A stretch of DNA of 64,000 nt from positions 208,991-272,990 of the forward strand of contig CAWDSG010000002.1 in the NCBI GenBank assembly GCA_963804975.1, written 5' to 3'. The notes beneath the pieces were generated by a model. The model did not search any database, was not told the origin of the DNA, and saw only the letters and a program-made list of their open reading frames with translations. Below are positions 19,651 to 58,426 of this stretch, piece by piece. Position 1 is the first letter of the stretch; the number at the start of each line of letters is the position of its first letter. Source of the stretch: an uncultured bacterium. Its GTDB lineage: Bacteria; Patescibacteriota; Minisyncoccia; Phycocordibacterales; GWA1-40-21. The position numbers and the translations under genes are program-made.

Positions 19651-22600
19651 CTCCAGCACCTTCAACCTCTCAATAATCAAGCTTGTTTCTCCGTTTCGGT
19701 CGGAAATTTTGCAGACGGCGGCTATGCATTTATCCGTTTCAATCGCACTCCTGAATTGCTCATAGGTTCTCGGAAAAACCACTGCTTCAATCGAGCCGGT
19801 AAAATCGGCAATTTTTATGAAAGCCATCTGCTCGTTGTTTTTTGTCGTTATGACTCTCACATCTTCAATAATTCCGCCGATCGGCTTTCCGTTGTCGATC
19901 TCACTTCTTACATCTTTTGTTTCCTCTTTTATTTTTTTGATATTTATCGGCTGTTTTTCCAAAATCGTCCTGAATTTATCCAAAGGATGTCCGGAAATAT
20001 AAAGTCCGAGCAATTCTTTTTCCCAGGCGAGCCTGTCTTTCATGCTTGCAGCTTCTGCCGGTTCAAGGCGGAAATTTTCATAAACGCCGCCTGCCTGACT
20101 AGTAAGCAGGCCAGAAAAAACTCCGAAAAGCGAATCTTGATTTTGATTTTTATTGCCGACTTCTTTGTTGTATTTGAGCATATTTTCAATATTCGCCAGT
20201 AGCTGGCCTCTTTCTCCAAACCCTGCCTGGCCGGCAGGCAGGTCATCCATCGCGCCGGATTTTATGAGAGCTTCAAGCGAACGTTTATTCAGATTCTTGC
20301 TCACAATCCTTTCAAGGAAATCAGAAAGCGATTTGAATTTGCCCCTGTCCAATCTTTCTCTGATAATCGCTTTGGAAATATCTTCGCCGAAATTCTTGAT
20401 TGTCATAAGGCCGAAGCGGATTTTGTCCCTATTCGGTCCTGTGTCGTGCGGCGAGACCTCGGGAGTTTTTACCACGGTAAAATCGCTGTAGCTTTCGTTT
20501 ACTGACGGAGGCAGGACGGGAATGCCCATCTTTTTGCAGTCCGAAATAAATTCGCCGATTTTTTCCACATCGCCGGAATCGGCGGTGAGGACGGCAGACA
20601 TATAAATGGCAGGGAAATTCGCTTTCATATATGCTGTCTGATATGACACGCGCCCGTAGCTTGCCGCATGAGCTTTGTTGAAACCGTATCCCTGGAAAGG
20701 TTCAAACAAATTCCACAATTCCTCGGCTTTTTTTTGTGTCATCTTTCCGTGTTTTATGCATCCTTCCACGAATTTGATATGCTGCCTGATCATTTCTTCC
20801 GGAATTTTCTTGCCGACGGCTTTTCTGAATTTATCCACTTCGCCCCAAGTGTAGCTGGCAACCTCAATGGCCGTCATAAGCAAATCATCCTGATAAACCA
20901 AGACGCCGAATGTGGTATCCAAATAATCTTTCATTTCTGGATGTAGATATATTGCGGGTTTTTCGCCGTGCTTCCTAGCAATATACTCATAAATGTTGTT
21001 CATCGGGCCCGGACGGTAAAGCGCGACCATTACATTGATATCGTGTATATTTGTCGGCCTCAATTCTTTAAGCGCTTTGGTCATGCCTTGGCCGTTGAGC
21101 TGAAAGACCCCTACGGTTTCTCCGCGTGCAAGCATGGCAAAAGTTTTTTTGTCATCAAGCGGAATTTTTTCTATGTCTATATTTATGTTTTCAATTACTT
21201 TCACGCGATGTACGGCATCGGCAAGGACCGAAAGATTCCTGATCCCCAGAAAATCAAATTTCAAAAGTCCGACGCCGTCTTCTCCGACCGAATCCATATC
21301 GTATTGAGTGATGATTTTATTTCCTTCTTTCTGGTCGTATTGGAGAGGGACATAATTTATAAGCGGTTCCGGAGCTATCACAACTCCGGCGGCATGGACG
21401 CTGATGTGCCTTGCGCACCCTTCGATTTTTTTCGCCATATCCATAATTATTTTTGCATCTTTTTCCTTGTCATATATTTCTTTGAGCTCTGGAACAATTT
21501 CAAGCGCTTTATCTATTGTCATTGGTGAACCTTGAGCCCCAAAAGGTATGAATTTGGCGATTTTGTCGGCAAGCGGCAAAGGATAACCCATAGCGCGAGC
21601 CACATCCCGCACGGCTCCGCGTGCCATCATAGTGCCGAAAGTGCCGATCTGCGCCACATTGTCTTTGCCATATTTTTCCCGCACATAATCAATGACTTCA
21701 TCGCGCCTGTTGTCCGCAAGATCCATGTCGATATCCGGCGCCGAAGGCCTTTCGGGATTCAGAAATCTTTCAAAAGGAAGCTTGTATTCGATCGGGTTGA
21801 CTTTTGTGATGCCGGTAAGATAGGAAACCATGGAGCCGGCTACGGAACCTCTGGTATTTGAAAAAATATTATGCTCAGCCGCATATTTTAAAAGATCGGC
21901 CACAACCAAAAAATATTGAGAATATTTTTTATTCTTGATGACCTCAAGCTCATATTCAAGCCGCTCTATGACTTCTCTCGAATGATGCAGATCTCTTTTG
22001 TCTATTCCTTCGTAAGCGATCCTTTCAAGCTCTTCATCGTAGGAAAGCTCGCTTTCCACGACAAATTTCGGAAAAACCCACGCGGCTTTGCCGAGAACAA
22101 TTTCCAAATTGCACATATCGGCGATTTTTACCGAATTCCCGAGAGCATTCGGTTCATTTTTAAAATATTTTTCCGCCGTCTCTGCCGATATGAATGAAAA
22201 ATTGTCGGTATCCCCGTTTAAATCTCTGTCGGAAAAATCTGAATGCGAATTCACTTGCACAAGCGTATCTCGCGCCGCTTTATCCTCCGGTTTCAGATAA
22301 TAGACATCATGTGCAGCCACAAGCTCAGTATCGGTTTTTTCCGCCAATTTCTTGATTTTTTCTTTGAGCTCAAGCTGGCCTTCTATTTCGGGATGATGCG
22401 TTATTTCCAGAAAAAAATTGTCCTTGCCAAAAACTTTTTTGTACCAATCGACTATTTTTTCCGCTTTTTCACTATCGCCATTTTTTAAAGCAACGGAACT
22501 TTCTCCGGAAAAATGAGGCATAATGCAGACGAGTCCGTCTTTATATTTTTCCATGAGCTCCTTATCGATTCTTGGCTTGTAATAAAAACCTTCAAAAAAT

Positions 22601-28491: not shown

Positions 28492-30762
28492 ATGTACCTA
28501 AAAGGCATAGAAATTTCCGGTTTTAAATCATTTGGCAAGAAAAGTTCGCTTGATTTCAGCGCGCCTATTTCTGCGATAGTCGGCCCGAACGGCTCCGGCA
28601 AATCAAATGTAGCCGAAGCTTTTTCTTTTGTGCTTGGCGAGCAGTCCATAAAATCTCTGCGTGGGAAAAAGGCTGAAGATCTTATTTTTAACGGCGGAAA
28701 AGAGGCATCTCGTTCAAACCGCGCTTCCGTAAAGCTCATTCTTAACAATGTCCAAAGAATTCTCAATATAGATTTTGACGAAGTTGCCATTGAGCGCGTG
28801 GTCAATCGCGATTCCACAAGCGAATATATTATAAATGGAAGTCCGGTTCGTCTTAAAGATATCATTGAACTATTATCCGGTGCGCATATCGGAGCTTCAG
28901 GACATCAGATAATTTCCCAGGGCGAGGCGGACAAGGTTCTGAACTCAAATATCCGCGAAAGAAGAGACATGATAGAAGACGCTTTAGGCCTTAAAATTTT
29001 TCAATACAAAAAAGAAGAAAGCGAAAGGAAACTTGAAAAGACGGAAGAAAATATAAAACAAGTTGAATCACTCCGAAGAGAAATCGCTCCGCACATCCGT
29101 TTTCTAAAAAAACAGGTGGAGAAAATAGAGAAAACGTTTGAAATGAAAAACAATTTGACTTCCATGTATCACGAATATTTCAGACGCGAGGAAGAATATA
29201 TAAATTATGAGAAAAAAACGATTGCCGGAGAAAAAGAGCCGCTTTTAAAAACAAAAGAAAAACTCGAAAAAGATTTGGCGGCGGCTAGAGAAACTCTCAA
29301 CAAGTCATCCCTGAAAGACAAAAAAAGCGACGAAGTGATGAAGGTTGAAAGCAAGCTAAAGGATGCGAGATTTTCAAAAGATAATCTGACGAGGAGCATC
29401 GGCCGCATTGAAGGGGAAATTTCCTCGCTTCTTAAAATTCTGAAAAAACAAAACGAGGAAAGCGCAAGTGCCCAGAAAAAAACAGTGGAACTGTCACAGG
29501 TGGAAAATATCGCAAAACAGATAAATCTGGAAATAGACGATGCCTTGGAAAGCTCGGACATTTCAAAAATAAAAGAGATTTTCAAATCCATAAAAAATAT
29601 TTTGAAAGATTTTATTGAAAGGCACAAAGAAAGCGAGAGCAAGGAAGCGGCGAGCGAATTGGAAAATGAGATAAAAACGCTTGAAAGCGAGAAAAAGGGC
29701 TATGAAGTGAAAATAAATGAGGCAAACGAACTTGAAACCAAGCTTTTGGAGGAATATTCCTTTCTTAAAAACGAAATAGAAAAGGAAAAGGATTCCAATA
29801 GAGATGCGGAAAAGACAATGTTTCGGATAGTTGCCGAGCAAAATGATATTCGCGGAAAAATATCTGCACTTGAGAGCAGAGAGGCAAGATTGAGGCACGA
29901 CGAGGAAGAATTTCAGAGAGAACTTCAGGAAGGATCTGTTCTTATCGGCGTTTCGGCCTTGCATTATAAGGATTTCCTGCCTACCGGCCAGGCAGGTTGG
30001 CCTATAGAAGATCGTCAGGTGCAAGAAGACAGAAGGCGAGCGTTGGAAAAAATAAAAATCCGCCTTGAGGACGCGGGAATTTCCGGCAGCGATGAAGTCG
30101 TGAAAGAATACAAGGAAACTACAGAAAGAGACAGTTTTTTGGAGCGCGAGCTTGAAGACCTGATAAAGTCATCGCAATCACTGAAAGATCTGATAACGGA
30201 GCTTGGCGAAAAACTTACGACCGAATTCAAGAACGGCGTTGAAAAAATAAACAAGGAGTTCCAAAGATTTTTCATGGCGATGTTCGGCGGAGGCAACGCT
30301 TCGCTTTCTGTCGTAAAAGAAAAAAAGAAGAAAAAATCCGAAACGGAATTGCCGTCCACTTTAGCTGAAGATGAAAGTGAGGACCTTGAGGAAGAAGAGG
30401 AATTGGAAGAGGGGATTGATATTGAAGTTTCTCTGCCGAGGAAAAAAATAAAAGGGCTGATGATGCTCTCCGGAGGTGAGCGGGCGCTTACATCCATCGC
30501 TCTTCTTTTTGCGATTTCTGCAGTAAATCCGCCTCCGTTTATCGTGCTTGATGAGACGGATGCGGCGCTTGATGAGGCCAACTCAAAAAAATACGGCGAT
30601 ATGATTGCCGAGCTTTCAAAATATTCCCAGCTTATTCTCATTACCCACAACAGGGAAACAATGTCCCGCGCCGGAGTTATCTACGGCGTGACAATGGGTT
30701 CTGATGGCGTTTCGCGGCTCCTTTCAATCCAGTTTGAAGAAGCAGTGCAAGTAGCAAAATAG
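28492..30762 (+). CDS. smc: SMC-like chromosome segregation ATPase (short, reduced hinge)
   Basis: 'MYLKGIEISGFKSFG', Walker A GPNGSGKSN, long coiled coil, C-terminal signature 'LSGGERALTSIALLFA' and D-loop 'FIVLDETDAALD'; 756 aa versus ~1150 typical; the in-frame 23-nt element sits in the mid region. Confidence 0.7.
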   Translation: MYLKGIEISGFKSFGKKSSLDFSAPISAIVGPNGSGKSNVAEAFSFVLGEQSIKSLRGKKAEDLIFNGGKEASRSNRASVKLILNNVQRILNIDFDEVAIERVVNRDSTSEYIINGSPVRLKDIIELLSGAHIGASGHQIISQGEADKVLNSNIRERRDMIEDALGLKIFQYKKEESERKLEKTEENIKQVESLRREIAPHIRFLKKQVEKIEKTFEMKNNLTSMYHEYFRREEEYINYEKKTIAGEKEPLLKTKEKLEKDLAAARETLNKSSLKDKKSDEVMKVESKLKDARFSKDNLTRSIGRIEGEISSLLKILKKQNEESASAQKKTVELSQVENIAKQINLEIDDALESSDISKIKEIFKSIKNILKDFIERHKESESKEAASELENEIKTLESEKKGYEVKINEANELETKLLEEYSFLKNEIEKEKDSNRDAEKTMFRIVAEQNDIRGKISALESREARLRHDEEEFQRELQEGSVLIGVSALHYKDFLPTGQAGWPIEDRQVQEDRRRALEKIKIRLEDAGISGSDEVVKEYKETTERDSFLERELEDLIKSSQSLKDLITELGEKLTTEFKNGVEKINKEFQRFFMAMFGGGNASLSVVKEKKKKKSETELPSTLAEDESEDLEEEEELEEGIDIEVSLPRKKIKGLMMLSGGERALTSIALLFAISAVNPPPFIVLDETDAALDEANSKKYGDMIAELSKYSQLILITHNRETMSRAGVIYGVTMGSDGVSRLLSIQFEEAVQVAK
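29974..29996 (+). repeat. in-frame palindromic element (FLPTGQAG) in the smc-like gene
   Basis: ttcctgcctaccggccaggcagg. Confidence 0.9.
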
Positions 30763-31933: not shown

Positions 31934-33946
31934 CTATTCAACTACCTCATAATCCATCTGCTTTCTGTCTAGGTCTGCGCTGACAAGCTTGATTTTTACC
32001 TTTTGTCCTAGCGAAAAAGTTCTTTTTGTTTTTTCGCCGACAATGGCGTATTTTTTGGGATTGAAGACATAAAAATCGTCTCCGAGTGAAGAAAGCTTAA
32101 TCATTCCTTCGGCTCTGGTTTGCGTATCTTCCGCATATATGCCCCATTCGGTGACGCCGGTAATAAGTCCGTCAAAAATTTGCCCGACTTTATCCTGCAT
32201 AAATTCCACCTGCTTGTATTTTCTTGCGTCTCGCTCGGCTTCCGAAGCTTTTATTTCTTGGTCGGTGGAATGTTGGCAAGCTTTCTCATAAAAAGCCAGA
32301 TTTTTTTCCTGAACGGAATTTTTTGAAAGAATGTTTCCGAGAATTCTGTGCACCAAAAGGTCCGGATATCTTCTGATAGGCGAGGTGAAGTGCGCGTAAT
32401 ATTCAAACGCAAGTCCGAAATGGCCGATATTTTTTACCGAATAAATCGCTTTGGCCATTGAGCGCACTGCGGCAGTTTTTACCAAAGCTTCCTCCGCCTT
32501 TCCTTCCACTTGAGCGAAAAGCGCCTGCATATCCTTGCCGGTGATGCTTCCGTTTTTGCCGATGATAAGCTCATGCCCCAGTGCTTTTACAAACACCGAA
32601 AGTTCGGTGATCTTTTCTCTGTCCGGAAAATCGTGTATCCTGTACGGAATGGGGAAAAGTTTCCCGGATTTCTTTTCAAATTTATAAACAAACTCGGCGA
32701 CTTCTTTGTTTGCAAGAAGCATAAATTCCTCCACGAGTTTGTGGGTATCAAGCCATTCTTTTTTGTAAATTCTTATCGGTTTGCCGCTCTGGTCAAGCTC
32801 AAAAGCGATCTCTTCCTGCTCAAAATCAATCGCGCCTTTTTGCCATTTTTCTTTTCTCAATATTTTTGCAATTTTGTTTAGAGTATCCAGTTCCTCAAAG
32901 AATCGCCCGGATTTTTGATTGATAATTTCCTGCGCGCTTTCGTATGAAAATCTTTTATCCGATTTGATGACAGTTCTTCCGAACCATTTTGAATGCACTT
33001 TTGCCCACGCATCCATTTCAAATATCGCGGAAAATGTGAGTTTATCTTCATTTTCATTCAAACTGCAGAGATTGTCGGAAAGCTCAAAGGGAAGCATCGG
33101 TATTGTTCTGTCAGGCAAATACACCGAACATCCTCGATTGTAGGCCTCCTTATCAAGTTCACTTCTTTCTTTTACATAATAAGATACATCGGCAATATGA
33201 ATACCGATTTCAAAATTTCCATTTTGAAGTTTTTTGAAAGATATGGCGTCGTCAAAATCTTTTGCGTTTTTCGGGTCAATGGTAAAAGTGAGTGTGTTTC
33301 GCAAATCTTTTCTATTTGCAATTTCTTCTTTTGGAATATTTCTATTTTGTTCAAAAATTACTTTTGATTCTCTGGAAGCACTCTCGGGAAATTCAATATT
33401 AAAACCTTTATCAATGGCAATAGAATTCATTTCCGTGGAGTTTTCGCCCTTTTTTCCAAGAACGGCTATGATTTCTCCTTCGGCAAAATTTTGCATTGGA
33501 ACCCACTTCGTAATTTTTATTTTTACTTTATCTTCGTCTTTTGCACTGCCTATTTTTTCACGTGGAATTTTTACGGACATCTTTAATTTCTTGTCATCTG
33601 GCGCAAAAGCAATTCCTTTTCCTGCCTGGCCGGCAGGCAGGTCTGAAATTAAAACAGTGCCGACAAAATAACTTTTTGCTCTCTCTATAACTCTCACAAC
33701 TTCTCCGCCCGATAATCCGGATTTGCTTTTTCCGTAGATTTTTACTTCAACTTTGTCTCCGGACATCGCGGAGTTCAAATCTCTCGCGGATATTTCAGCC
33801 TCAACATCTCCTTTTTCAGCCAAAAAATAGGCGATATTGCCTCGTATGGATTTTATCGTGCCGATAAATATTTTACTTTTTCCATTTTGTCCGGATTTTT
33901 CGTGGAGATTTTTTCTATCTCTTCTGAATCTTTTATAGTTTTTCAT
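31934..33946 (-). CDS. rnr: ribonuclease R (RNB family 3'-5' exoribonuclease)
   Basis: N-terminal cold-shock/OB, RNB domain ('HIADVSYYV', 'YLPDRTIPMLP'), C-terminal S1; carries the in-frame 23-nt element near the N-terminus. Confidence 0.85.
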   Translation of the reverse strand: MKNYKRFRRDRKNLHEKSGQNGKSKIFIGTIKSIRGNIAYFLAEKGDVEAEISARDLNSAMSGDKVEVKIYGKSKSGLSGGEVVRVIERAKSYFVGTVLISDLPAGQAGKGIAFAPDDKKLKMSVKIPREKIGSAKDEDKVKIKITKWVPMQNFAEGEIIAVLGKKGENSTEMNSIAIDKGFNIEFPESASRESKVIFEQNRNIPKEEIANRKDLRNTLTFTIDPKNAKDFDDAISFKKLQNGNFEIGIHIADVSYYVKERSELDKEAYNRGCSVYLPDRTIPMLPFELSDNLCSLNENEDKLTFSAIFEMDAWAKVHSKWFGRTVIKSDKRFSYESAQEIINQKSGRFFEELDTLNKIAKILRKEKWQKGAIDFEQEEIAFELDQSGKPIRIYKKEWLDTHKLVEEFMLLANKEVAEFVYKFEKKSGKLFPIPYRIHDFPDREKITELSVFVKALGHELIIGKNGSITGKDMQALFAQVEGKAEEALVKTAAVRSMAKAIYSVKNIGHFGLAFEYYAHFTSPIRRYPDLLVHRILGNILSKNSVQEKNLAFYEKACQHSTDQEIKASEAERDARKYKQVEFMQDKVGQIFDGLITGVTEWGIYAEDTQTRAEGMIKLSSLGDDFYVFNPKKYAIVGEKTKRTFSLGQKVKIKLVSADLDRKQMDYEVVE
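33621..33643 (-). repeat. in-frame palindromic 23-nt element (DLPAGQAG) in rnr
   Basis: The plus strand reads cctgcctggccggcaggcaggtc. Confidence 0.9.
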
Positions 33947-34027: not shown

Positions 34028-34477
34028 ATGTTAATAATAAGATTACAAAGAAAAGGCAGAGTGCACGAACCGACTTTTCGCATAGTTGTCACCGATTCAA
34101 AATTCGGGGTAAAATCCGGCAAACCTGTCGAGGTTATCGGCTCTTATGATCCAAGAAAAGGAAAAGGCAATAACAGCGTAGATGGAGAAAGAGTGAAATA
34201 CTGGATATCAAAAGGAGCACAAGTTTCCGATACGGTATATAATTTTATGATAGACCAGAAAGTTCTTACAGGGAAAAAGATAAATGTACTTCCCAAGAAT
34301 AAAATAATAAACGCAAAGAAAGCCAAAGACCTGCCTACCGGCCAGGCAGGAGCGGAAGCGGCGGCAAAAGCTTCAAAACCGGATTTGACAAGCTCACCGC
34401 AAGAAAAGCCGGCAAAAGAAATGCCAGCTGCAGAAGCAAAAGTAGAACCGGCTCCAGAACCGGCCGTTGTTCAATAA
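34028..34477 (+). CDS. rpsP: 30S ribosomal protein S16 with C-terminal extension
   Basis: 'MLIIRLQRKGRVHEPTFRIVVTDSK' S16 N-terminus; A/K/E-rich tail hosting the in-frame 23-nt element. Confidence 0.85.
   Translation: MLIIRLQRKGRVHEPTFRIVVTDSKFGVKSGKPVEVIGSYDPRKGKGNNSVDGERVKYWISKGAQVSDTVYNFMIDQKVLTGKKINVLPKNKIINAKKAKDLPTGQAGAEAAAKASKPDLTSSPQEKPAKEMPAAEAKVEPAPEPAVVQ
34328..34350 (+). repeat. in-frame palindromic 23-nt element (DLPTGQAG) in the rpsP tail
   Basis: gacctgcctaccggccaggcagg. Confidence 0.9.
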
Positions 34478-48216: not shown

Positions 48217-50265
48217 ATGAGCAAATTCAAGATAAAAGCAGAATATAAGCCGGCGGGAGATCAGCCACAGGCCATAAACGAGCTTGTGGATGGCATAGAA
48301 GCGGGTCTGAATAAGCAGACCCTTTTTGGCGTTACCGGAAGCGGGAAAACTTTCACCATCGCAAATGTCATAGAAAAAACTCAAAAGCCGACGCTTGTCA
48401 TTGCTCACAACAAAACTCTCGCTGCCCAGCTCGCCCAAGAATACAAAGAATTTTTCCCCGACAACGCCGTGCATTATTTCGTTTCGTATTACGACTACTA
48501 TCAGCCGGAGGCCTATATGCCGATCACGGACACTTATATTGAAAAAGAAGCGATGATAAATGAGGAGATCGACCGCCTTCGCCACGCTTCCACGCAGGCA
48601 TTGCTGACAAGAAAGGATGTGATCATTGTTGCCTCGGTTTCCTGCATTTACGGCTTGGGTTCTCCGGAAGATTATGAAAAGGTAAATATCAAACTCAATA
48701 TCGGCGACAAAACCACACGGCAGGATTTGATTAAAAAACTTATAAATGTTCATTTTAAAAGGACAAACTCGGACATTACCGCTGGCTCGTTCCGCGCAAT
48801 CGGCAATGCTATTGAAGTGATGCCGGTAAATGAAAAAATTCTCATTAGAATTGACCTCGCGGATGACCAGATAAAAAATATCTCGCGGATTGATTCGGTT
48901 TCAAGAAAGCTCGTGAAAGACAGTTTGAAATCAGTTTTCATTTTTCCGGCAAAACATTTTATTACGGATAAGGACCAGCAAAAGCGGGCGATAGCGAGCA
49001 TAAAAATTGAGCTTGAAGAGCAATTGAAAAAGCTGAAAAAGGAAGGCAGGCTTCTTGAAGCGGAAAGATTGCGAAGAAGAACCGCGCACGACTTGTCGCT
49101 CATAAGAGAAGTTGGTTATTGCAACGGCATTGAAAATTATTCAAGGCATTTTTCGGGGAAAGTTGCAGGAGAACCGCCGGATACCTTGCTTTCATATTTT
49201 CCAAAAGATTTTCTGACAGTAATAGACGAATCGCATGTCACGGTTTCGCAGATAAGAGGAATGTATGCCGGCGATGCTTCCAGAAAAAAGACACTTATTG
49301 ATTATGGTTTCAGATTGCCGTCTGCAAAAGACAACAGACCGCTCAAGTTTGAAGAATTTGAAAAGAAAGTCGGACAGACGATTTACACTTCCGCTACGCC
49401 GGGAGATTATGAAAGAGAAAATTCCAAGAAGATTGTGGAACAGATTATCAGGCCGACGGGTTTGATAGACCCGGTTATGGATATAAAACCGATTACCGAG
49501 GTAAAAGGTCGTAATAAATCGCAGGTTTATGATTTTATTGATGAAGCGCTGAAAGTTATAAAAAATGGGGGAAGAGTGATAGCAACAACGCTTACAAAAA
49601 AGATGGCGGAAGATTTGAGCGAATATCTGAAAGACCTGCCTACCGGCCAGGCAGGGAAAGGTAAAATCAAAGCGGAATATTTGCACAGCGAAATAAAAAC
49701 GATAGACAGAATAGATATTTTGACGAATTTCCGCAAAGGCAAATTTGATTGTATTGTCGGCGTGAACCTTTTGAGAGAGGGTTTGGATTTGCCGGAAGTG
49801 GAGTTTATCGGAATTCTTGATGCGGACAAGGAAGGATTTTTGCGTTCAGACACTTCGCTGATACAGACCATCGGCAGAGCTGCGAGAAATATTGCAGGCC
49901 GAGTGGTGCTTTATGCAGACCGAATTACCGGCTCAATTGAAAGGGCAGTGGATGAGACAAATAGACGAAGGGAAAAACAGATTGCTTACAACACAAAGCA
50001 TGGCATTACTCCAAAAACGATCGTCAAAAAGATCCACGATATTACCGAGCATATGCGAAGCGACCACGACAGAGCTGTTGCCGAACTTGTCAAAATTGAC
50101 GAGCAAATGGCAGAAAAAAGTCCCGCAAAATTGATTAAGCAAAAAGAAATTCAAATGAACGCCGCTGTGAAAATCCTGGATTTCGAATCCGCCGCGATTT
50201 TAAGGGATGAAATAGCAATATTAAAGAAACGACCAGAAACCAAACCTACAAAAGTAACAATCTAA
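48217..50265 (+). CDS. uvrB: excinuclease ABC subunit B
   Basis: 'GDQPQAINELVDG', Walker A 'GVTGSGKTFT', beta-hairpin, C-terminal UVR domain 'AAILRDEIAILKK'; in-frame 23-nt element at 49633-49655. Confidence 0.95.
   Translation: MSKFKIKAEYKPAGDQPQAINELVDGIEAGLNKQTLFGVTGSGKTFTIANVIEKTQKPTLVIAHNKTLAAQLAQEYKEFFPDNAVHYFVSYYDYYQPEAYMPITDTYIEKEAMINEEIDRLRHASTQALLTRKDVIIVASVSCIYGLGSPEDYEKVNIKLNIGDKTTRQDLIKKLINVHFKRTNSDITAGSFRAIGNAIEVMPVNEKILIRIDLADDQIKNISRIDSVSRKLVKDSLKSVFIFPAKHFITDKDQQKRAIASIKIELEEQLKKLKKEGRLLEAERLRRRTAHDLSLIREVGYCNGIENYSRHFSGKVAGEPPDTLLSYFPKDFLTVIDESHVTVSQIRGMYAGDASRKKTLIDYGFRLPSAKDNRPLKFEEFEKKVGQTIYTSATPGDYERENSKKIVEQIIRPTGLIDPVMDIKPITEVKGRNKSQVYDFIDEALKVIKNGGRVIATTLTKKMAEDLSEYLKDLPTGQAGKGKIKAEYLHSEIKTIDRIDILTNFRKGKFDCIVGVNLLREGLDLPEVEFIGILDADKEGFLRSDTSLIQTIGRAARNIAGRVVLYADRITGSIERAVDETNRRREKQIAYNTKHGITPKTIVKKIHDITEHMRSDHDRAVAELVKIDEQMAEKSPAKLIKQKEIQMNAAVKILDFESAAILRDEIAILKKRPETKPTKVTI
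49633..49655 (+). repeat. in-frame palindromic 23-nt element (DLPTGQAG) in uvrB
   Basis: gacctgcctaccggccaggcagg. Confidence 0.9.
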
Positions 50266-50344
50266 TTGAAGTTGTTTGTACTGTGGATAACTAAGTGTTG
50301 CAAAAAAGGGTATAATAGGCACGTAAAAGGATCTGAATTTTTTC

Positions 50345-50373
50345 TTGCTAATTAAAAATATTTGTGTTATAAT
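50345..50373 (+). promoter_or_regulatory. sigma70-type promoter TTGCTA-17-TATAAT abutting the Panacea gene ATG (leaderless-type)
   Basis: The -10 box ends 6 nt before the ATG at 50380; no SD. Confidence 0.55.
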
Positions 50374-50379
50374 CAAGGC

Positions 50380-50922
50380 ATGAAAATACCCATCACAAAA
50401 CTTAAGGCAATATTGTTGTATTTTTATACTTATACAGATTCACGACTTCTTGGAAAAGTGAAGTTAATGAAACTGTTTTATTTTCTTGATTTTACTCACA
50501 TAAAAAAATATGGTGTTCCTGTAACATTTGATACTTATGTAAAATTGGAACACGGACCAATACCTTCCACAATAAAAAACCTTATCGATACTGCAGATGA
50601 TGATATTGATAACTCATTCTTATCAGATACAATTTCTATTGAAATGTCTGAAGAAAATAAAATGCACCGTATTGTTGGATCAAGAAAATTCAATGACAAA
50701 GATAGCAAATTATTCTCTGAAAATGAATTAAAAATTCTTCAGGAAGTATGTTTACGATTTGGAGATAAAAATACAGGATATATTGAAAAAGCTTCTCATG
50801 AAGAAGCTCCTTGGAAATTATCAAACATGTTTGATAATATTTCTTATTCTTTGGCGGCAAAAGATACTGATAGTTTGATTTCAGAAGAACAAATAAAATT
50901 TTTTGAAGAAATAACAAAATAA
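50380..50922 (+). CDS. Panacea-domain (DUF4065, SocA-like) antitoxin-type protein
   Basis: 'KLMKLFYFLDFTHIKKYGVPVTFDTYVKLEHGPIPSTI' matches the DUF4065/Panacea core. The track uses TTG at 50362; the first ATG is 50380, directly after TTGCTA-17-TATAAT. Confidence 0.65.
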   Translation: MKIPITKLKAILLYFYTYTDSRLLGKVKLMKLFYFLDFTHIKKYGVPVTFDTYVKLEHGPIPSTIKNLIDTADDDIDNSFLSDTISIEMSEENKMHRIVGSRKFNDKDSKLFSENELKILQEVCLRFGDKNTGYIEKASHEEAPWKLSNMFDNISYSLAAKDTDSLISEEQIKFFEEITK

Positions 50923-50926
50923 TTCA

Positions 50927-51316
50927 ATGGATGGAACTCTTGTAACATTTGGAGACGTTTTTAGATACAACGAAGAATTTTATGTTTATTTAGCATTAAA
51001 CGCAGATGCGGGTATATTATATGCTGCAAGAATATTAAATGAAGGTCAAACCAAGGCGTTTGATAAGATGAGTATTAAAAGTAAGATTGACGATGAAAAA
51101 AACTTGACCTTTTGTTATGTTATGCTCAAAACGGAAAATTTTAAAAATAGAGCGGCTCATTTTTATCAAAATGAACATGAAAGTTCAAATATCTATATAG
51201 AAAAATTTTGTTCACTTGATAAAGAAGATTTAATAAAGATAAAAGCCCAGGTAATGGATAGTAAGGCAATATCTCAAAACTTGAAAGATGCAGTCAAAGA
51301 TATTACTCTGTCATAA
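50927..51316 (+). CDS. hypothetical protein, candidate toxin partner of the Panacea gene
   Basis: 129 aa, starts 4 nt after the Panacea stop, no recognisable domain. Confidence 0.35.
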   Translation: MDGTLVTFGDVFRYNEEFYVYLALNADAGILYAARILNEGQTKAFDKMSIKSKIDDEKNLTFCYVMLKTENFKNRAAHFYQNEHESSNIYIEKFCSLDKEDLIKIKAQVMDSKAISQNLKDAVKDITLS

Positions 51317-51365
51317 CTATAAATGGTAAGGTTGAACTTTGCCATTTATAATAATTTTGATTTAT

Positions 51366-51397
51366 TTGCCAAACTTTAAAACTAAGAATAGTATAAT
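51366..51397 (+). promoter_or_regulatory. TTGCCA-17-TAGTAT(AAT) promoter of module 51405
   Basis: Conserved 'atttgccaaa' -35 context. Confidence 0.5.
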
Positions 51398-51404
51398 TTA
51401 ACAT

Positions 51405-51956
51405 ATGTATATATCAACTTGGATCATTATAATTATAGTTATTGTTGGAATATATTTTTACCGTAAATCCAAAAAGCAAAATAAGAGTATATCAGAAAAT
51501 CAATTGCTAACCGCTGATGAAATGTGGGTACGAGCAGAAGTATATATGGAAAGAGTAATGAGAAAAAGTCCTAATATAGAAAAATATCTGCAAGATGAAA
51601 GAGATATGGTAAAAGCTATGGAAAGAGACATGGTACGCCTTCGGGAACGTTTTAAACATGATCCAAAAAAACAACTTGAGATTGCACAAGGTTGGATGGA
51701 TTATTCTCATGCAGTAGAAAGGATAAAATTTTCTAGAGAGTTATTAGATGTTGATATGGAACATAATGCTTATGATTCGCATGATGAACGAACTAAGGAA
51801 GCGTGGATTACTATACCAGAAATTGCAAAACGAGTTGAAAATATACTTGGAAAAGATTCGAGTTCTAAGTTAGTGCATGACAGGCTTTATAGAAATGCAG
51901 AAGCTACAGGAGAGGTTGTTACTGATTTTGTTCTTAAAAATAAAAATAAATCTTAA
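51405..51956 (+). CDS. membrane-anchored hypothetical protein
   Basis: N-terminal TM (WIIIIIVIVGIYFY), charged helical remainder; own TTGCCA-17-TAGTAT promoter abutting the ATG. Confidence 0.3.
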   Translation: MYISTWIIIIIVIVGIYFYRKSKKQNKSISENQLLTADEMWVRAEVYMERVMRKSPNIEKYLQDERDMVKAMERDMVRLRERFKHDPKKQLEIAQGWMDYSHAVERIKFSRELLDVDMEHNAYDSHDERTKEAWITIPEIAKRVENILGKDSSSKLVHDRLYRNAEATGEVVTDFVLKNKNKS

Positions 51957-52006
51957 GAAATTTTGATATCATTGTTGATTTCAGCAATTTTAATTAATTT
52001 CCCAAT

Positions 52007-52042
52007 CTCCAAAACCAAAATAAAAGAAAATCCCACGAAAAC
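52007..52042 (+). repeat. 36-nt direct repeat, left copy (ctccaaaaccaaaataaaagaaaatcccacgaaaac)
   Basis: About 33 of 36 identical to 52674-52709; flanks the two-gene module 52133-52614. Confidence 0.75.
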
Positions 52043-52058
52043 CGTGCGGTTTTTTTAT

Positions 52059-52087
52059 TTGCCAAAAATACAAACTCGGCGTAGTAT
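52059..52087 (+). promoter_or_regulatory. TTGCCA-17-TAGTAT promoter of module 52133
   Basis: tttatttgccaaaaatacaaactcggcgtagtat. Confidence 0.5.
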
Positions 52088-52132: not shown

Positions 52133-52381
52133 ATGAAAAAAACATTTAAGAGATTATGGTTGCATGTTTTATTAATCGGCAAGACGTTGAACACTAGTGG
52201 AATCATTTGTTTCTTCAGGCTAAGACACAAGTTTGATCCGATTGAAGTTGAAGCTCATTATTTGCATGCCAAATGTTATCTATGCAAAAAAAAGCTTTAT
52301 TACGCCAAATCTTCCAACGAGTATAAAAACTTGTTGGAAGAAAATTCGCGATTCTTGAAAACGAAAGGAATGGAATCATGA
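52133..52381 (+). CDS. hypothetical small protein (module gene 1)
   Basis: 82 aa; AAGGAG RBS; its stop overlaps the next gene's start (ATGA). Confidence 0.3.
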   Translation: MKKTFKRLWLHVLLIGKTLNTSGIICFFRLRHKFDPIEVEAHYLHAKCYLCKKKLYYAKSSNEYKNLLEENSRFLKTKGMES

Positions 52382-52614
52382 AAAAAGTTGAATTGACATT
52401 TATGGTCGTCCCCGAGTTTTTGAAAAGCCATTGTTTCATCAAAGATCCGGTCAAGATCAAGATCATTGATCCAGGAGCCATTTTTCTTACAGGCATTCTC
52501 GGCGAAAGCGGAAGAAAAATGGTGAAGGCGGGCATTCCATTTTATTTCAAACGGAAGCTTGCCGAACATTTGATCAATAAAGGAATCGCGGTACGAATAC
52601 CAAGCAGGAAATAA
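52378..52614 (+). CDS. hypothetical small protein (module gene 2)
   Basis: 78 aa, translationally coupled to the upstream gene. Confidence 0.3.
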   Translation: MKKVELTFMVVPEFLKSHCFIKDPVKIKIIDPGAIFLTGILGESGRKMVKAGIPFYFKRKLAEHLINKGIAVRIPSRK

Positions 52615-52673
52615 TATCGCATTTCCAACAAAAGCACACGACCTTCTGGTACGGTGCTTTTTTATTTGCTAAC

Positions 52674-52709
52674 CTCCAAAACCAAAATAAACGAAAACCC
52701 CACAAAAAC
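52674..52709 (+). repeat. 36-nt direct repeat, right copy (ctccaaaaccaaaataaacgaaaaccccacaaaaac)
   Basis: See the left copy. Confidence 0.75.
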
Positions 52710-52710
52710 T

Positions 52711-52932
52711 CTAAGGTCTTCGTGGGGATTTTTTTCTTCTTGGCTTGGTTCCCAAACAGCACAAACCAGTCCTTATCTTTTTTGAATGAATCGGATGTTC
52801 TGTTTCAAATCCGCATTCAGGACACGGATGGCCGCGATAAGGTTTGAATGTTCGCGCCTTTACAGATGCGGCATGACCAGTAGACCCATTTAAATTAAAA
52901 AGCAATTCTTCTTTTATAGTTTTAAGTTTCAT
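52711..52932 (-). CDS. hypothetical small protein with zinc-ribbon-like CPECG motif
   Basis: 73 aa; AAAGGAG RBS on the minus strand; 'HPCPECGFETEHPIH...CC'. Confidence 0.25.
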   Translation of the reverse strand: MKLKTIKEELLFNLNGSTGHAASVKARTFKPYRGHPCPECGFETEHPIHSKKIRTGLCCLGTKPRRKKSPRRP

Positions 52933-53000
52933 GGCAAACTCCTTTCGTTTTCAATCTATTTTCAGTATAAACAAATAATAATATTTGTCTAGATTTAAAT

Positions 53001-53028
53001 TTGCCAAAATCCAAAATAGGTGTAATAT
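53001..53028 (+). promoter_or_regulatory. TTGCCA-16-TAATAT promoter of module 53109
   Basis: aaatttgccaaaatccaaaataggtgtaatat. Confidence 0.45.
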
Positions 53029-53108: not shown

Positions 53109-53771
53109 GTGAAAAAATTGTTCGCCGTCGTCGTTTTGTTTTTAGTCGTTGTTTCAAATGTTTCGGCAGGAAGCAGTGAATTTAAAGTAGGAATCGGACC
53201 GGAAATAAACTGGACGAACGTTCCTATCACCTCTGATCCGACAATTGGAAACGTGGTTTTGGGAAATCCTGCGATAGGGGAGAATATTTTTTTACAGTAC
53301 AGGCCGAAATATCTTTTCGGAACAATCGCCGTGAAAGCCGAAGCGAGCATGTTCGGAAAACAGGACTTTGCCTCGGAGAACCTGAGCGTGTCGGGAAGCG
53401 AAACGACAAGCTCATGTGGCTTTATTTTGAAAGTTTATCCTCCGGTCAAAGGACATATTGAACCGTATGGCGGAATCGGCGCCGATTATGTCAGCGTTAT
53501 AGGCGGATATTCTCGCCCGACAACCCAGACGATAAATATTTACGGCCAATCGGTTGATATTCCGACGATGACCACGACAGCGGTTTGTCTCGGATCATGG
53601 ATACCCAAAGCAGAGGTTGGCGCGGATATATCCATTATCGATGATCATTTCTCAATATATATAGAAGGATTTGATATGTTTTTAAATGAAATGAAAGGCG
53701 GCGAAGCCGATAATCTTGCAAAGAAAGCCAGCAGTATCGGATTATCGGTAGGAGGAGCCATATCGTTTTAA
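53109..53771 (+). CDS. secreted beta-rich protein resembling an 8-strand outer-membrane beta-barrel (OmpW/OMP_b-brl-like)
   Basis: GTG start after AGGAG; signal peptide ...VSA/GS; alternating hydrophobic dyads; C-terminal '...GLSVGGAISF' ending in Phe, as in OMP beta-signal. Confidence 0.4.
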   Translation: MKKLFAVVVLFLVVVSNVSAGSSEFKVGIGPEINWTNVPITSDPTIGNVVLGNPAIGENIFLQYRPKYLFGTIAVKAEASMFGKQDFASENLSVSGSETTSSCGFILKVYPPVKGHIEPYGGIGADYVSVIGGYSRPTTQTINIYGQSVDIPTMTTTAVCLGSWIPKAEVGADISIIDDHFSIYIEGFDMFLNEMKGGEADNLAKKASSIGLSVGGAISF

Positions 53772-53837
53772 TTAAAAAGATATATTAAAATTAAAAACCC
53801 GTTTCAAAGAAAAGAAACGGGTTTTTTATTGCAAAAT

Positions 53838-53886
53838 TTGCCAAAACTCTTATTTTCTTGACTTTACTAAATATTAATGATACTAT
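53838..53886 (+). promoter_or_regulatory. promoter region of module 53925 (TTGCCA context; TTGACT-17-TACTAT)
   Basis: aaatttgccaaaactcttattttcttgactttactaaatattaatgatactat. Confidence 0.4.
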
Positions 53887-53924: not shown

Positions 53925-54371
53925 ATGTTATCTGATAAATCAAATAAGATTGATTTGTCTGAGGAAATTATGTGTGCATTGATATTTGCAAGAAGCATAA
54001 TACGGAAATTTTTTGGCCGAAACATTGTCTTTAAACAAGCGACTATTTATCAAGAAAACAAAGAGGTTGATAGGTATGAAGTCGAAATCAAAACGGTAAT
54101 AAAAACTGAAGATAGCTGCAACCCATTTCTCTTTGGAGTTGTATTTGGTTTTACGCTTGCCGGCACGAATGGCTTTTCGCCTGAACCAAATGGCGAAGTA
54201 GCAATGCGGTTGGTGTACGGTATGGGGAAAAAGGATGAAGACCTTTCTTTCGTTTATAATCAAGGAGGGTTTAATTTCTCCGACAACACACGAAAACTTT
54301 TGAATGAACTACGCGCAAAGATAGGTTTACCAGAAATAGATTTGCCGGAATTCATTCAAAACCCATCTTGA
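53925..54371 (+). CDS. hypothetical protein
   Basis: 148 aa; GGGAGG RBS; own promoter and terminator. Confidence 0.3.
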   Translation: MLSDKSNKIDLSEEIMCALIFARSIIRKFFGRNIVFKQATIYQENKEVDRYEVEIKTVIKTEDSCNPFLFGVVFGFTLAGTNGFSPEPNGEVAMRLVYGMGKKDEDLSFVYNQGGFNFSDNTRKLLNELRAKIGLPEIDLPEFIQNPS

Positions 54372-54434
54372 TAAATATCGACAACGCCCACGAAAAGCCC
54401 AGTGCTTCTCGCGGGCTTTTTGTTTGTAAAATAT

Positions 54435-54463
54435 TTGCCAAATTTATAAACTAAGAGTAATAT
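54435..54463 (+). promoter_or_regulatory. TTGCCA-17-TAATAT promoter of uvrA
   Basis: atatttgccaaatttataaactaagagtaatat. Confidence 0.5.
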
Positions 54464-54513
54464 GCTCGTACATAACCCTATGGGGCAAACCCGAGGGTAA
54501 TTTGGCTTTATAT

Positions 54514-57204
54514 ATGAAAACAACATTTAACGAAAAGTCACCAAAAATCATTGTAAAAGGGGCGAGAACTCACAATCTTAAGAATATTACTGTTGAGATG
54601 CCTCGCAATAAGATGATCGCCATTACAGGGATTTCCGGCTCAGGGAAGTCGTCTTTTGCATTTGACACTATTTTTGCCGAAGGCCAGAGGCGATATGTTG
54701 AATCGCTTTCTTCTTATGCAAGGCAATTTTTGCATCAGATGCAGAAGCCGGATGTGGACGAAATAGTCGGGCTTTCGCCTGCAATTTCAATAGACCAAAA
54801 ATCCCGTTCAAACAATCCTCGTTCAACCGTGGCGACTATCACGGAAATTTACGATTATTTGAGAATTTTATATGCAAGAATCGGCAAACCGCACTGCCTT
54901 GTCTGCGGACGCGAAATTAAAAAACTTTCAAAAGAGGAAATTTTGGAAACAATTATTCATACTGTTACGCATATCAAATCTCCGCAGAAATCCAAAGAAG
55001 TGCTCGGGGTGAAAGTAACAAGCGACCCCGGTGAAGTAAAAAACGCACTACTTCACGGGGCAAGCAAGATCAGAATTTTTTCTCCGGTTGTTGTCGGCAG
55101 AAAAGGGGAGTACTACCAGCTTCTTTACGATTTGATAGAAAAGGGCTATGAATACGTAAAAATAGACGGCGAGCTTAAAAAGCTCCGCAACCAGATAATT
55201 CTCGCCAAAAACAAAAAGCACGATATTGATGTGCTTGTTGATGAATTTTACATAAGCGAGTTTATTTTGACAAAAACTGGCACAAGCAAGGCAGTTGAAG
55301 CGGATAGGCAAAGATTTGAAAATGTAAAAACCCGACTTTCAGACGCGGTGGAAAAAGCCATTGAGGAATCAAAAGGGCTTTTGAAAATTGAAACGCCTGA
55401 AGACCTGCCTACCGGCCAGGCAGGAACCAAAATGATCTCCGTTAAATTTATGTGCCCTTACGATGGCTATTCATATCCAGAAATAGAACCGCGGCTTTTT
55501 TCATTCAATTCGCCATATGGCGCATGTCTAACTTGCCACGGCCTCGGCACAAAAGATTTTTGGACTGACGAACCTTGCGAAACGTGTCATGGCAAGAGAT
55601 TGCGAGAAGAAGCGCTGCATGTACTTATTGGAGATATAAATATCGTGGAATATACCGCTAAATCAATCGGAGATGCGAAAAATTTTATGGAAAATCTGAA
55701 ATTGACCGAGCTTGAACAGGAAATTTCCCGGGTAATTCTGAAAGAAATTGACTCACGGCTCCAATTTATGATGGATGTCGGCATTGAATATCTTTCGCTT
55801 GATAGACGGGCAAATACTCTTTCAAACGGCGAAGCGCAAAGAATCCGCCTTGCTTCGCAGCTCGGCTCCGGCCTTGTCGGCGCTCTTTATGTGCTGGATG
55901 AACCGACAATCGGCTTGCATCAGAGAGACAACGACAAGCTTATAAAAACATTGATAAATCTGCGCGATCTGGGAAATACGATTCTTGTGGTTGAACACGA
56001 CGAAGATACGATGTTTGCTTCGGATTATATCGTTGATATCGGTCCCGGTGCCGGAGTGCACGGAGGAAAAGTCGTTGTTTCCGGATATATGGACGAGCTT
56101 TTGACCGCGAAAGAAAATAAATCCGGTTCAATCACGCTTGATTATCTTCGCGGTGATATGAAAATTGAAATGCCGAAAAAAAGACGCGATCAAGACAAGG
56201 GAAAAATAAAAGTGCGAGGCGGAAAAATTTTCAATATAAAAAATATGAATGTTGAAGTGCCGCTTGGAAAATTTGTGACTATCACGGGAGTGTCCGGCTC
56301 GGGAAAGTCATCTCTGGTATATGAGATTTTGCACAAAAACCTGCGGGCACGGCTTGAAAGAAAATTTCGCAACGCAAATACTTACAATTGCGAGTCATTT
56401 GCCGGCTCGGAATATGTTTCAAGGACGATTATGATAGACCAGTCGCCGATAGGAAGGACTCCTCGTTCAAATCCGGCAACTTATATCGGTGCGTGGACTT
56501 TTATCCGCGATATGTTTGCTATGACGGCGATGGCGCGAGAAAGAGGCTGGGGAGCAAACAGATTTTCATTTAACGTAAAAGGCGGAAGATGCGAAGCATG
56601 CCAAGGAAACGGAACGATTGAAGTGGAAATGCACTTTTTGCCGACGATTTATGTGCCGTGCGACATTTGCCATGGAAAAAGATTTACCAAGGAGACATTG
56701 GAAGTGAAATACAAAGGGAAAAATGTCCATCAAGTGCTTGAAATGACTGCAGAGGAAGCTTTGGAATTTTTTGCCGATTTGCCGGCGGTTTACGACAGGT
56801 TGAAATGCGTGAATGAAGTCGGACTTGGATATTTGAAACTCGGGCAATCTGCCACGACGCTTTCCGGCGGAGAAGCGCAGAGAGTGAAAATCGCTTCGGA
56901 ACTTTACAGGCCGGATTTGCACAAGACAATTTATTTTTTGGACGAGCCGACAATCGGGCTTCATTACGAAGATGTAAAAAAACTTATTGAAATTTTACAG
57001 AAGCTTGTTGATAACGGAAATACTGTCGTAGTTATTGAGCACAATATGGATCTGATAAAAAATTCCGATTATGTGATAGATATCGGGCCGGAAGGCGGAG
57101 ACAGGGGCGGGGAAATTGTCGCCAAAGGGACGCCGGAGAGTGTAGCGGAAAATGAAAAGAGTTATACTGGTAAATATTTGAAGAGAATTTTGAAGAGAAA
57201 ATAG
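54514..57204 (+). CDS. uvrA: excinuclease ABC subunit A
   Basis: '[14 protein letters not shown]', two ABC modules (GISGSGKSS..., GVSGSGKSS...), zinc fingers; the track start TTG at 54502, and the ATG at 54514 aligns with the canonical UvrA N-terminus; in-frame 23-nt element at 55402-55424. Confidence 0.95.
55402..55424 (+). repeat. in-frame palindromic 23-nt element (DLPTGQAG) in uvrA
   Basis: gacctgcctaccggccaggcagg. Confidence 0.9.
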
Positions 57205-57208
57205 GAAA

Positions 57209-58426
57209 ATGAACAGTCAATATCTGAAAAAAATAAAATTGCCTAACAGTCCGGGAATATACATCTTTAAAAAAGATAGGCGAATTCTTTATATTGGAAA
57301 AGCGACATTGCTTAAAGACAGAGTGAGAAGCTATTTTGCTAATGATTTGATTACGACTCGCGGACCTGTAATCGTTGACATGGTTTTTAAGGCAAACAAA
57401 ATTGATTTTATAAAAACCGATTCCGTGCTTGAAGCCCTGATACTTGAGAGCAATCTGATAAAAAAGTATCAGCCAAAATACAATACAATTGATAAGGATG
57501 ATAGAAGCTATAACTATGCGGTGATTACAAAAGAAGATTTTCCGAGAGTTTTAGTTATCCGCGGAAAAGAATCGTTTGGCGGGAAAAGGTTCAACCTTGA
57601 GGAGCCAAAACTTTCAAAAATTTTCGGGCCTTTTGTTAACGGAACACAGCTCAAAGAAGCATTAAAAATTATCCGCAAAATTTTCCCATTTATTGATAAT
57701 TATTCGGAAAAGAAAACCGGATACAAATTTTACAGGGAAATCGGACTTGCGCCGGAAGTCGGCAGTGCCGAAGCGAAAAAAGATTATGAAAAAACGATCA
57801 GGAATATAAAACTGTTTTTTGAAGGTAAAAAAACAAGCATTATTAAAAACCTGAAAGGAGAAATGAAAGGCCTTGCCAAAAATCAGGAATTTGAAAAAGC
57901 CGATAAGGCGAAAAGAACCATTTTTGCTTTAAATCATATCCAAGATATTGCATTACTTAAAGACGAAAGTAAAAAGTTTGATATTGAAAACGGATTTCGC
58001 ATTGAAGCGTATGATGTGGCGCATACGAGCGGGACAAATACGGTTGGAGTTATGACGGTGATTGAAAACAGGAAAATAAACAAGAATGAATACAGAAAGT
58101 TCAAGATAAACAACAGCATTCGGAATGATATTGCCGCTCTTGAAGAAATATTAGAAAGACGGCTTAAACACACGGAATGGAAATTCCCGGATATAATCGT
58201 AGTTGACGGGGGAATCGCGCAGAAAAATATCGCTGAAAAAATCATAAGAAAATCCGGTCTGAAAATTGATGTGATAGCTGTCATAAAAAACGAAGCACAT
58301 AAACCAAAAAATATTCAGGGGAAATCAGATATTTTGGATAAATACAAAAACGAAATTATTCTTGCAAACAGCGAAGCGCACAGGTTCGCGATAAGTTATC
58401 ACAGAAATATCAGGGATAAATTTTAG
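57209..58426 (+). CDS. uvrC: excinuclease ABC subunit C lacking the C-terminal (HhH)2 domain
   Basis: GIY-YIG ('PGIYIFKK...ILYIGKA'), UVR motif, RNase-H-like endonuclease region ('AYDVAHTSGTN', 'IVVDGGIAQ'); ends before the helix-hairpin-helix pair. Confidence 0.75.
   Translation: MNSQYLKKIKLPNSPGIYIFKKDRRILYIGKATLLKDRVRSYFANDLITTRGPVIVDMVFKANKIDFIKTDSVLEALILESNLIKKYQPKYNTIDKDDRSYNYAVITKEDFPRVLVIRGKESFGGKRFNLEEPKLSKIFGPFVNGTQLKEALKIIRKIFPFIDNYSEKKTGYKFYREIGLAPEVGSAEAKKDYEKTIRNIKLFFEGKKTSIIKNLKGEMKGLAKNQEFEKADKAKRTIFALNHIQDIALLKDESKKFDIENGFRIEAYDVAHTSGTNTVGVMTVIENRKINKNEYRKFKINNSIRNDIAALEEILERRLKHTEWKFPDIIVVDGGIAQKNIAEKIIRKSGLKIDVIAVIKNEAHKPKNIQGKSDILDKYKNEIILANSEAHRFAISYHRNIRDKF

Follow-up and report, generated by a model that had tools for sequence, protein, structure and literature searches.

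A Panacea gene and a downstream partner of predicted MazF/CcdB-type fold between uvrB and uvrA: a putative PanAT-like toxin-antitoxin module centred on Patescibacteria

Between uvrB (962 bits) and uvrA (1222 bits), the window, i.e., the whole stretch of 64,000 nt analysed here, encodes two adjacent small genes, which we refer to as A and B. Their coordinates are collected in Table 1 together with those of the surrounding features. The GC content is 0.27-0.28 over positions 50500-51500, compared to 0.42-0.44 in uvrB and uvrA. With both flanking genes identified, this agrees with the original prediction of an AT-rich gene pair between uvrB and uvrA. Insertion at a tRNA was also considered, and no tRNA was found near the pair in the window.

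Table 1. Coordinates of genes, signals, and repeats in and around the uvrB-uvrA interval and of further repeat copies in the window.
Feature	Position	Strand	Remarks
uvrB	48217-50265		
Sigma-70-like promoter pattern	50345-50373	+	TTGCTA-17-TATAAT, 10/12 match, TG extension
Gene A	50380-50922	+	180 aa, ATG start
A/B junction	50923-50926	+	TTCA, 4 nt between A stop and B ATG, no Shine-Dalgarno sequence
Gene B	50927-51316	+	129 aa, ATG start
Terminator-like hairpin	51313-51355	+	directly 3' of the B stop, closes the two-gene unit
Stem-loop of the hairpin	51318-51350		15 pairs, weak T tail
Inverted repeat I3, arms	51313-51333, 51335-51355		hairpin 3' of B
Promoter-like motif of the next gene	51366-51394		
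Gene after the pair	51405-51956		183 aa, N-terminal membrane helix
Direct repeat, family D2	51994-52053, 52661-52720		60 nt, 80% identity, 667 nt apart
Small ORFs	52133-52381, 52378-52614		no family match
Gene	53109-53771		220 aa, signal-peptide-like start
Gene	53925-54371		148 aa
TATTTGCCAAA motif copies	51361-51394, 52054-52087, 52999-53016, 53835-53845, 54430-54474		
uvrA	54502-57204		
uvrC-like gene	57209-58426		405 aa
CCTGCCTACCGGCCAGGCAGG copies	19093-19113, 20222-20242, 33621-33641	-	
CCTGCCTACCGGCCAGGCAGG copies	29976-29996, 34330-34350, 49635-49655, 55404-55424	+	49635-49655 in uvrB, 55404-55424 in uvrA

The start of B immediately behind the A stop codon is as had been predicted. At homologous loci, the two genes range from a 4-nt overlap to a distance of a few nucleotides. 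Together with the missing Shine-Dalgarno sequence, the narrow junction suggests that B may be translationally coupled to A. The spacing also lies well within the 100 nt that Kurata et al. 2022 allow between the genes of a PanAT pair. An own promoter of the pair had been predicted as well. The corresponding pattern is present, with 6 nt between its end and the ATG of gene A, but 12 promoter-like sites in the AT-rich stretch stand against 9.0 +/- 2.8 in shuffled sequences. Because such sites are thus not more frequent than in the shuffles, we treat the putative promoter of gene A as a pattern match. An mRNA transcribed from it would have little or no leader and no space for a Shine-Dalgarno sequence. 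At four homologous loci, a -10-like element is located 9-22 nt upstream of the ATG of A, likewise without a Shine-Dalgarno sequence.

Since the hairpin follows B directly and the next gene has a promoter-like motif of its own, the unit comprises the two genes and not the whole uvrB-uvrA stretch of 4.2 kb. The three larger genes in the remainder of the interval gave no significant match in Pfam, NCBIfam, PADLOC, or PHROGs. Their GC content climbs gradually from 0.33 to 0.43, so that only the Panacea pair appears clearly foreign. A motif of the form TATTTGCCAAA...(A/G)TA(G/A)TAT is repeated upstream of successive genes of the stretch, including uvrA, and one of its copies scores as a promoter, TTGCCA-17-TAGTAT. 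The motif, which differs from the TTGCTA/TATAAT pattern before the Panacea gene, probably represents the promoter consensus native to this genome, its -35 element being extended. The D2 direct repeat brackets the two small ORFs.

Two further observations were made in the window. A GC-rich palindrome of 21 nt, CCTGCCTACCGGCCAGGCAGG, with a 7-bp stem and a 7-nt loop, occurs in seven copies within 3 mismatches in the window (0 expected by chance). The five exact copies all lie in ORFs, in sense orientation and in the same frame, and encode LPTGQAG. The UvrB segment with this motif appears to exceed its E. coli counterpart by about 8 residues. The exact 21-mer was found in at least 120 metagenome contigs, whose GC contents range from 28% to 69%. 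There it takes up every frame and orientation, it frequently lies outside long ORFs, and the LPTGQAG frame is no more than enriched (40 of 120). The element appears to be a widespread miniature palindromic repeat whose in-frame presence in housekeeping genes is tolerated. UvrC models have about 570-700 positions, of which the uvrC-like gene behind uvrA matches only the first 230-250 or so (259 bits against a cut-off of 285 bits); the gene may encode a shortened UvrC.

The product of gene A is matched by the Pfam model SocA_Panacea (PF13274) with 74.4 bits (E 1.8e-20, gathering cut-off 25.7) over model positions 1-113 of 113, corresponding to residues 29-146, which confirms the original assignment of this ORF to the Panacea proteins. 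It lacks an extra N-terminal domain and is a stand-alone, PanA-like Panacea protein. Its 635 homologs, the best at 60-67% identity, originate almost exclusively from metagenome-assembled genomes (MAGs) of Patescibacteria. As the homologs are 178-182 aa long and M1 is nearly invariant, the assigned start codon is supported. Beyond the Pfam model, A continues for about 34 aa at its C-terminus; this extension is conserved and acidic, and the last 35 aa of the homologs have a median net charge of -4. An alignment of 35 sequences contains 43 invariant columns, some of them in this extension. A is predicted to be the antitoxin of the pair. The NCBIfam equivalog of the type VI antitoxin SocA (NF047745) scores A with 15.8 bits, below its cut-off of 190.

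For B, no family match was found in Pfam or NCBIfam, in accordance with the earlier description of a 129-aa ORF without recognisable domain. A word-indexed search with B returned B itself only, on a 606-kb contig. An exhaustive HMMER search over 1.84 billion cluster representatives revealed 234 relatives at E <= 0.001, 71 of them at E <= 1e-10. Among the best 150 of these 234, nearly all are 120-140 aa long and almost all were matched near full length. In an alignment of 135 sequences, the conserved positions are mostly hydrophobic, and the conserved polar residues are D101 (100%), T69 (95%), D10 (82%), K106 (78%), R75 (77%), and H78 (72%). Two apparent hits of B from the window, to PDC-M08A of PADLOC (E 0.002) and to phrog_19084 (E 6e-5), were rejected as chance matches, as each model matches only one of the 135 family members. 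No consistent match to a PADLOC defence system was obtained for either A or B.

The two genes are conserved as a unit, as had been anticipated. Four A homologs on long contigs are each followed by a gene for a protein of 128-134 aa without Pfam match, in four unrelated neighbourhoods, and these proteins share 24-39% identity with B. A locus scan with one genome per species yielded 57 loci, 53 of which contain close A homologs at 47-72% identity. An HMM built from the B alignment places B directly 3' of A in 49 of these 53 loci. Three of the remaining four stop at a contig edge, and in the fourth (L045), B breaks off after 22 codons beside a tRNA gene. Thus, B or a B remnant follows A in all 50 testable loci, while the flanking genes differ between loci. 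The reverse look-up, which addresses the reciprocity asked for in the PanAT criteria of Kurata et al. 2022, gave the same picture in a small sample: the distant B members P0270, P0256, P0240, and P0197 (E about 1e-7 to 1e-10) are all directly preceded by a Panacea gene of about 177-180 aa. With 234 representatives of the B family and an adjacency that recurs in every testable homologous locus, the association of A and B is not a chance arrangement.

The 53 close loci are distributed over Saccharibacteria, Parcubacteria, Microgenomates, Roizman-, Woese-, Uhr-, Falkow-, Doudna-, and Giovannonibacteria, and others. A few of the bins are labelled Gammaproteobacteria, Bacteroidales, or Flavobacterium; one locus belongs to a Nanoarchaeia MAG and one to an isolate, Parasediminibacterium sp. 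JCM 36343 (L028). One MAG carries two copies of the pair (L048 and L071). No close relatives of the Panacea gene were found on IMG/VR viral contigs, and B had no match in the phage and plasmid collections. The patchy spread in unrelated contexts, the foreign base composition, the two copies in one MAG, and a recurrent decay of B (see below) make the pair look mobile or selfish, and in the present genome it looks horizontally acquired.

Four distant Panacea homologs (31-39% identity) have partners other than B, which fits the partner swapping described for Panacea. The Nitrospirota-type loci L062 (2034-2453) and L064 (3580-3993) encode partners of 137-139 aa that appear MazF-like by eye, and the archaeal loci L063 (3478-3825) and L065 (3480-3824) encode partners of 114-115 aa with a RelE/ParE-like GKSKGYRV motif; none has a Pfam match. 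L062 to L065 represent partner swapping around one Panacea clade.

A comparison of B with toxin folds by structure prediction had been proposed together with the original prediction. From the single sequence, AlphaFold gave an unusable model (pLDDT 45); with the 135-sequence alignment, pLDDT was 85.7 and pTM 0.79, all five models lying between 83 and 86. Searched against the PDB with Foldseek, the model retrieved MazF and CcdB chains almost exclusively, with a weak best E-value (0.066), probabilities up to 0.98, and TM scores of 0.5-0.6. In a viral structure library, PemK-like proteins were among the top matches. The predicted model shows the SH3-like barrel and C-terminal helix of the MazF/Kid type and, in addition, an extra C-terminal helix at residues 117-124. 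B is therefore predicted from its model to have a MazF/Kid/CcdB-type fold.

Sequence and profile comparisons gave no corresponding signal. None of the 135 family members matches the Pfam models of PemK (PF02452) or CcdB (PF01845) at E<1, and a PDB profile search with B found nothing. With hhalign, the probability was below 1% against CcdB as well as against two thin MazF profiles, one of four MazF/Kid sequences and one of 124 sequences that is shallow and covers the Bacillus NdoA subfamily only. The comparison with the MazF-looking partners in the outgroup loci L062 and L064 was likewise non-significant. In E. coli MazF, the catalytic residues are Arg29 in the beta1-beta2 loop and Thr52, the Arg being part of a G-x-E...R-P loop. 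The sole local alignment, itself non-significant, sets T69 of B on Thr52. In the family alignment, B has no conserved Arg before strand 3 and none that matches the MazF catalytic Arg; R75 and H78 are nearby candidates, with a conservation that is low for catalytic residues. CcdB acts on GyrA through its C-terminal Trp-Gly-Ile. Neither a PF01845 sequence match nor the C-terminal gyrase-binding residues of CcdB were found in B.

Six loci combine a full-length A with a broken B: a nonsense codon interrupts B in L010 (TAA), L025 (TGA), and L052 (TAA), two frameshifts in L028, an internal deletion in L035, and a truncation in L045. Recoding of the stop codons was considered and rejected, because the in-frame codons are the same as those ending A and B at these loci and are hence plain nonsense mutations. 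The only cultured organism in the locus set, the Bacteroidota isolate Parasediminibacterium sp. JCM 36343, carries an intact Panacea gene next to the twice frameshifted B (L028:3531-3940), which shows that the module has reached Bacteroidota and that the toxin candidate is decaying there. All loci were found by searching with A, so that this asymmetry is biased towards intact A genes. While the loss of a toxin is harmless, the loss of an antitoxin is not. To our knowledge, the MazF/Kid/CcdB fold has so far been found only in toxins. Among Panacea pairs, the toxin is more commonly encoded downstream (943 vs 325; Kurata et al. 2022, PMC8832971). B is thus predicted to be the toxin (PanT-like) from its modelled fold, from the commoner downstream position of the toxin, and from its decay next to an intact A.

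When 46 intact, non-duplicate pairs were compared with each other, identity averaged 55.8% for A and 30.6% for B, and A is more conserved than B in 99.9% of the 1,035 comparisons. Pairs with more similar A proteins also tend to have more similar B proteins (Spearman 0.46), in line with joint inheritance of the two partners. As a rule, an antitoxin evolves faster than its toxin. The reversal of this trend suggests that A is constrained by something besides B, and this would fit the view of Ernits et al. 2023 (PMC10440598), who propose sensing as the main role of Panacea.

With a probability of roughly 65%, we regard the pair as a bicistronic type II module of the PanAT kind, horizontally acquired, whose toxin is a sequence-divergent protein of MazF/CcdB fold. 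After its insertion between uvrB and uvrA, A would be made first from a shared mRNA and B by translational coupling to A. B would be a small growth-inhibiting effector of the MazF/Kid/CcdB fold, acting most likely by sequence-specific RNA cleavage as in MazF, possibly via a cluster of T69, R75, and H78. A would neutralise it most likely by direct binding, either with the Panacea core or with the conserved acidic C-terminal tail, or with both. When A is lost, degraded, or triggered, e.g., by phage infection, free B would arrest growth. Several findings speak against this reading: B lacks detectable sequence or profile similarity to MazF/PemK and CcdB, no conserved Arg occupies the MazF catalytic position, and the conservation of R75 and H78 reaches only 77% and 72%. 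The higher conservation of A, opposite to the usual trend, suggests that A does more than bind B, and the decay asymmetry was seen in loci collected with A as the query. Moreover, the MazF-like PanT of F. xanthum (cluster T8) was not toxic in E. coli (Kurata et al. 2022, PMC8832971). This last result, together with the unrecognisable canonical catalytic motifs of B, would also suit a conserved two-gene operon with a non-toxic function in which the toxin fold of B has been re-used. We consider such an operon very improbable, since the patchy, mobile spread in unrelated contexts, the foreign base composition, the two copies in one MAG, and the repeated decay of B beside a persisting A are hallmarks of a selfish toxin-antitoxin system and not of a housekeeping function. 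An exchange of roles, which had been raised as a reversed order of toxin and antitoxin, would make the Panacea protein the harmful component and B its antidote. It would suit the faster evolution of B, which is typical of antitoxins, but is hardly credible: with A as the toxin, cells could not survive a broken B next to a full-length A, as in the six loci, B has the predicted toxin fold, the gene order is antitoxin-first, and those Panacea proteins that have been tested act as antitoxins (Kurata et al. 2022, PMC8832971).

Within a module of the preferred kind, B might instead be a CcdB-like, non-enzymatic poison that traps DNA gyrase or another protein target. While RNA cleavage is the most likely activity of B and such poisoning its main alternative, the latter is unlikely, given the non-significant hhalign comparison to CcdB, the extra helix at the end of B in place of the Trp-Gly-Ile C-terminus, and the 95% conserved T69 that was aligned, non-significantly, to Thr52 of MazF. 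A different emphasis falls on A if it serves as a sensor or adaptor, be it a proteolytic adaptor like SocA (type VI logic) or the trigger-sensing subunit of an abortive-infection system, whose conserved surface would bind a conserved cellular or phage factor. The 43 invariant columns among 35 sequences, the identity of 56% vs 31% for B, the first characterisation of Panacea in SocA, and the sensor proposal of Ernits et al. 2023 (PMC10440598) speak for this possibility. Nevertheless, we rate it as rather improbable: A remains far below the SocA equivalog cut-off (15.8 vs 190 bits), neither protein has a consistent PADLOC defence match, close relatives were absent from the viral contigs and the phage and plasmid collections searched, and validated stand-alone PanAs associate stably with their toxins (Kurata et al. 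2022, PMC8832971). A more far-reaching combination of ideas, which we put forward as a speculation unlikely to hold in full, is that the active site of B, lacking the canonical Arg loop, was rebuilt around T69, R75, and H78 for a new target or chemistry and that, at the same time, the unusually conserved Panacea protein senses a conserved trigger in candidate-phyla bacteria. If so, B would have a target or chemistry absent from MazF and CcdB, the trigger might be, e.g., a factor from a phage or from the host cells of these episymbionts, and the module, instead of serving plain addiction, would act throughout the lineage as a switch for abortive infection or dormancy.

Patescibacteria have tiny genomes with few recognised defence or stress modules. 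The pair recurs in many of their lineages, among them Saccharibacteria, Parcubacteria, and groups of Microgenomates, and standard annotation names only half of it. With B as a family of predicted MazF/CcdB fold, several hundred hypothetical proteins become annotatable as probable toxins, and the MazF/CcdB superfamily would gain a sequence-divergent branch. Furthermore, the pair is a natural test case for how a stand-alone Panacea protein would neutralise a toxin of MazF fold and for whether Panacea has a second, conserved function as a sensor, as the far stronger conservation of the antitoxin candidate suggests.

Compared with known systems, the pair resembles classical two-component modules in part only. 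In type III systems (ToxIN/CptIN), a tandem-repeat RNA antitoxin lies upstream of the toxin gene. This possibility was rejected, as positions 50000-51316 contain no tandem repeat and a Panacea protein gene abuts B. MazEF, Kis-Kid, and PemIK differ from the pair by an AbrB- or RHH-type MazE antitoxin in place of a Panacea protein; B, in turn, fails the PF02452 model, and its sequence has no counterpart of the MazF G-x-E...R-P loop. CcdAB, the gyrase poison system of the F plasmid, is set apart by its other antitoxin type, by the missing PF01845 match, and by the extra helix at the C-terminus of B. SocA is the founding Panacea protein and acts as a ClpXP adaptor, while SocB is an inhibitor of the replication clamp. 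The pair shares with the type VI system SocAB an antitoxin with a Panacea domain, but A scores far below the SocA cut-off, and SocB is a different toxin.

The closest likeness is found among the PanAT loci defined by Kurata et al. 2022 (PMC8832971), who described 88 partner clusters, 41 of them without recognisable domain. In the part of their Dataset S1 considered here, clusters T5, T6, and T8 are EndoA/PemK/MazF-like by HHpred (>99% for representatives), with a Panacea protein without N-terminal domain, antitoxin-first order, and gaps mostly between -8 and +3 nt. The P. moraviensis T6 pair is given there as a validated toxin-antitoxin system and the C. bovis T5 toxin as toxic. Like these clusters, the pair has a stand-alone Panacea gene first, followed within a few nucleotides or with an overlap by a toxin gene for about 110-140 aa, a MazF/CcdB toxin fold (predicted for B), and a mobile, patchy spread. 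As judged from the descriptions of the three clusters in that part of the dataset, B differs by the absence of any Pfam or profile signal, by the extra C-terminal helix of its model, and by a distribution concentrated in Patescibacteria. The name Patescibacteria is absent from the same part of Dataset S1, and the Saccharibacteria entries therein belong to another cluster, T14, with an HTH-PanA (PMC8832971). In the literature library searched, no paper was found for Patescibacteria together with DUF4065, and only a CRISPR survey of 2016 for Candidate Phyla Radiation with toxin-antitoxin and MazF. With MazF-like PanT clusters already catalogued and a predicted MazF/Kid/CcdB fold, B does not qualify as the new toxin type that had been suggested; it may be a far-diverged branch of T5, T6, or T8. 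In NetFlax, MazF/PemK is among the commonest toxin folds, and sequence-diverse toxins often share a fold. The general picture of PanAT systems is therefore unchanged and the architecture of the pair already known; what is new is a predicted toxin family that gives no signal with the sequence tools applied here, has an additional helix in its model, lacks the canonical Arg loop, and is centred on Patescibacteria.
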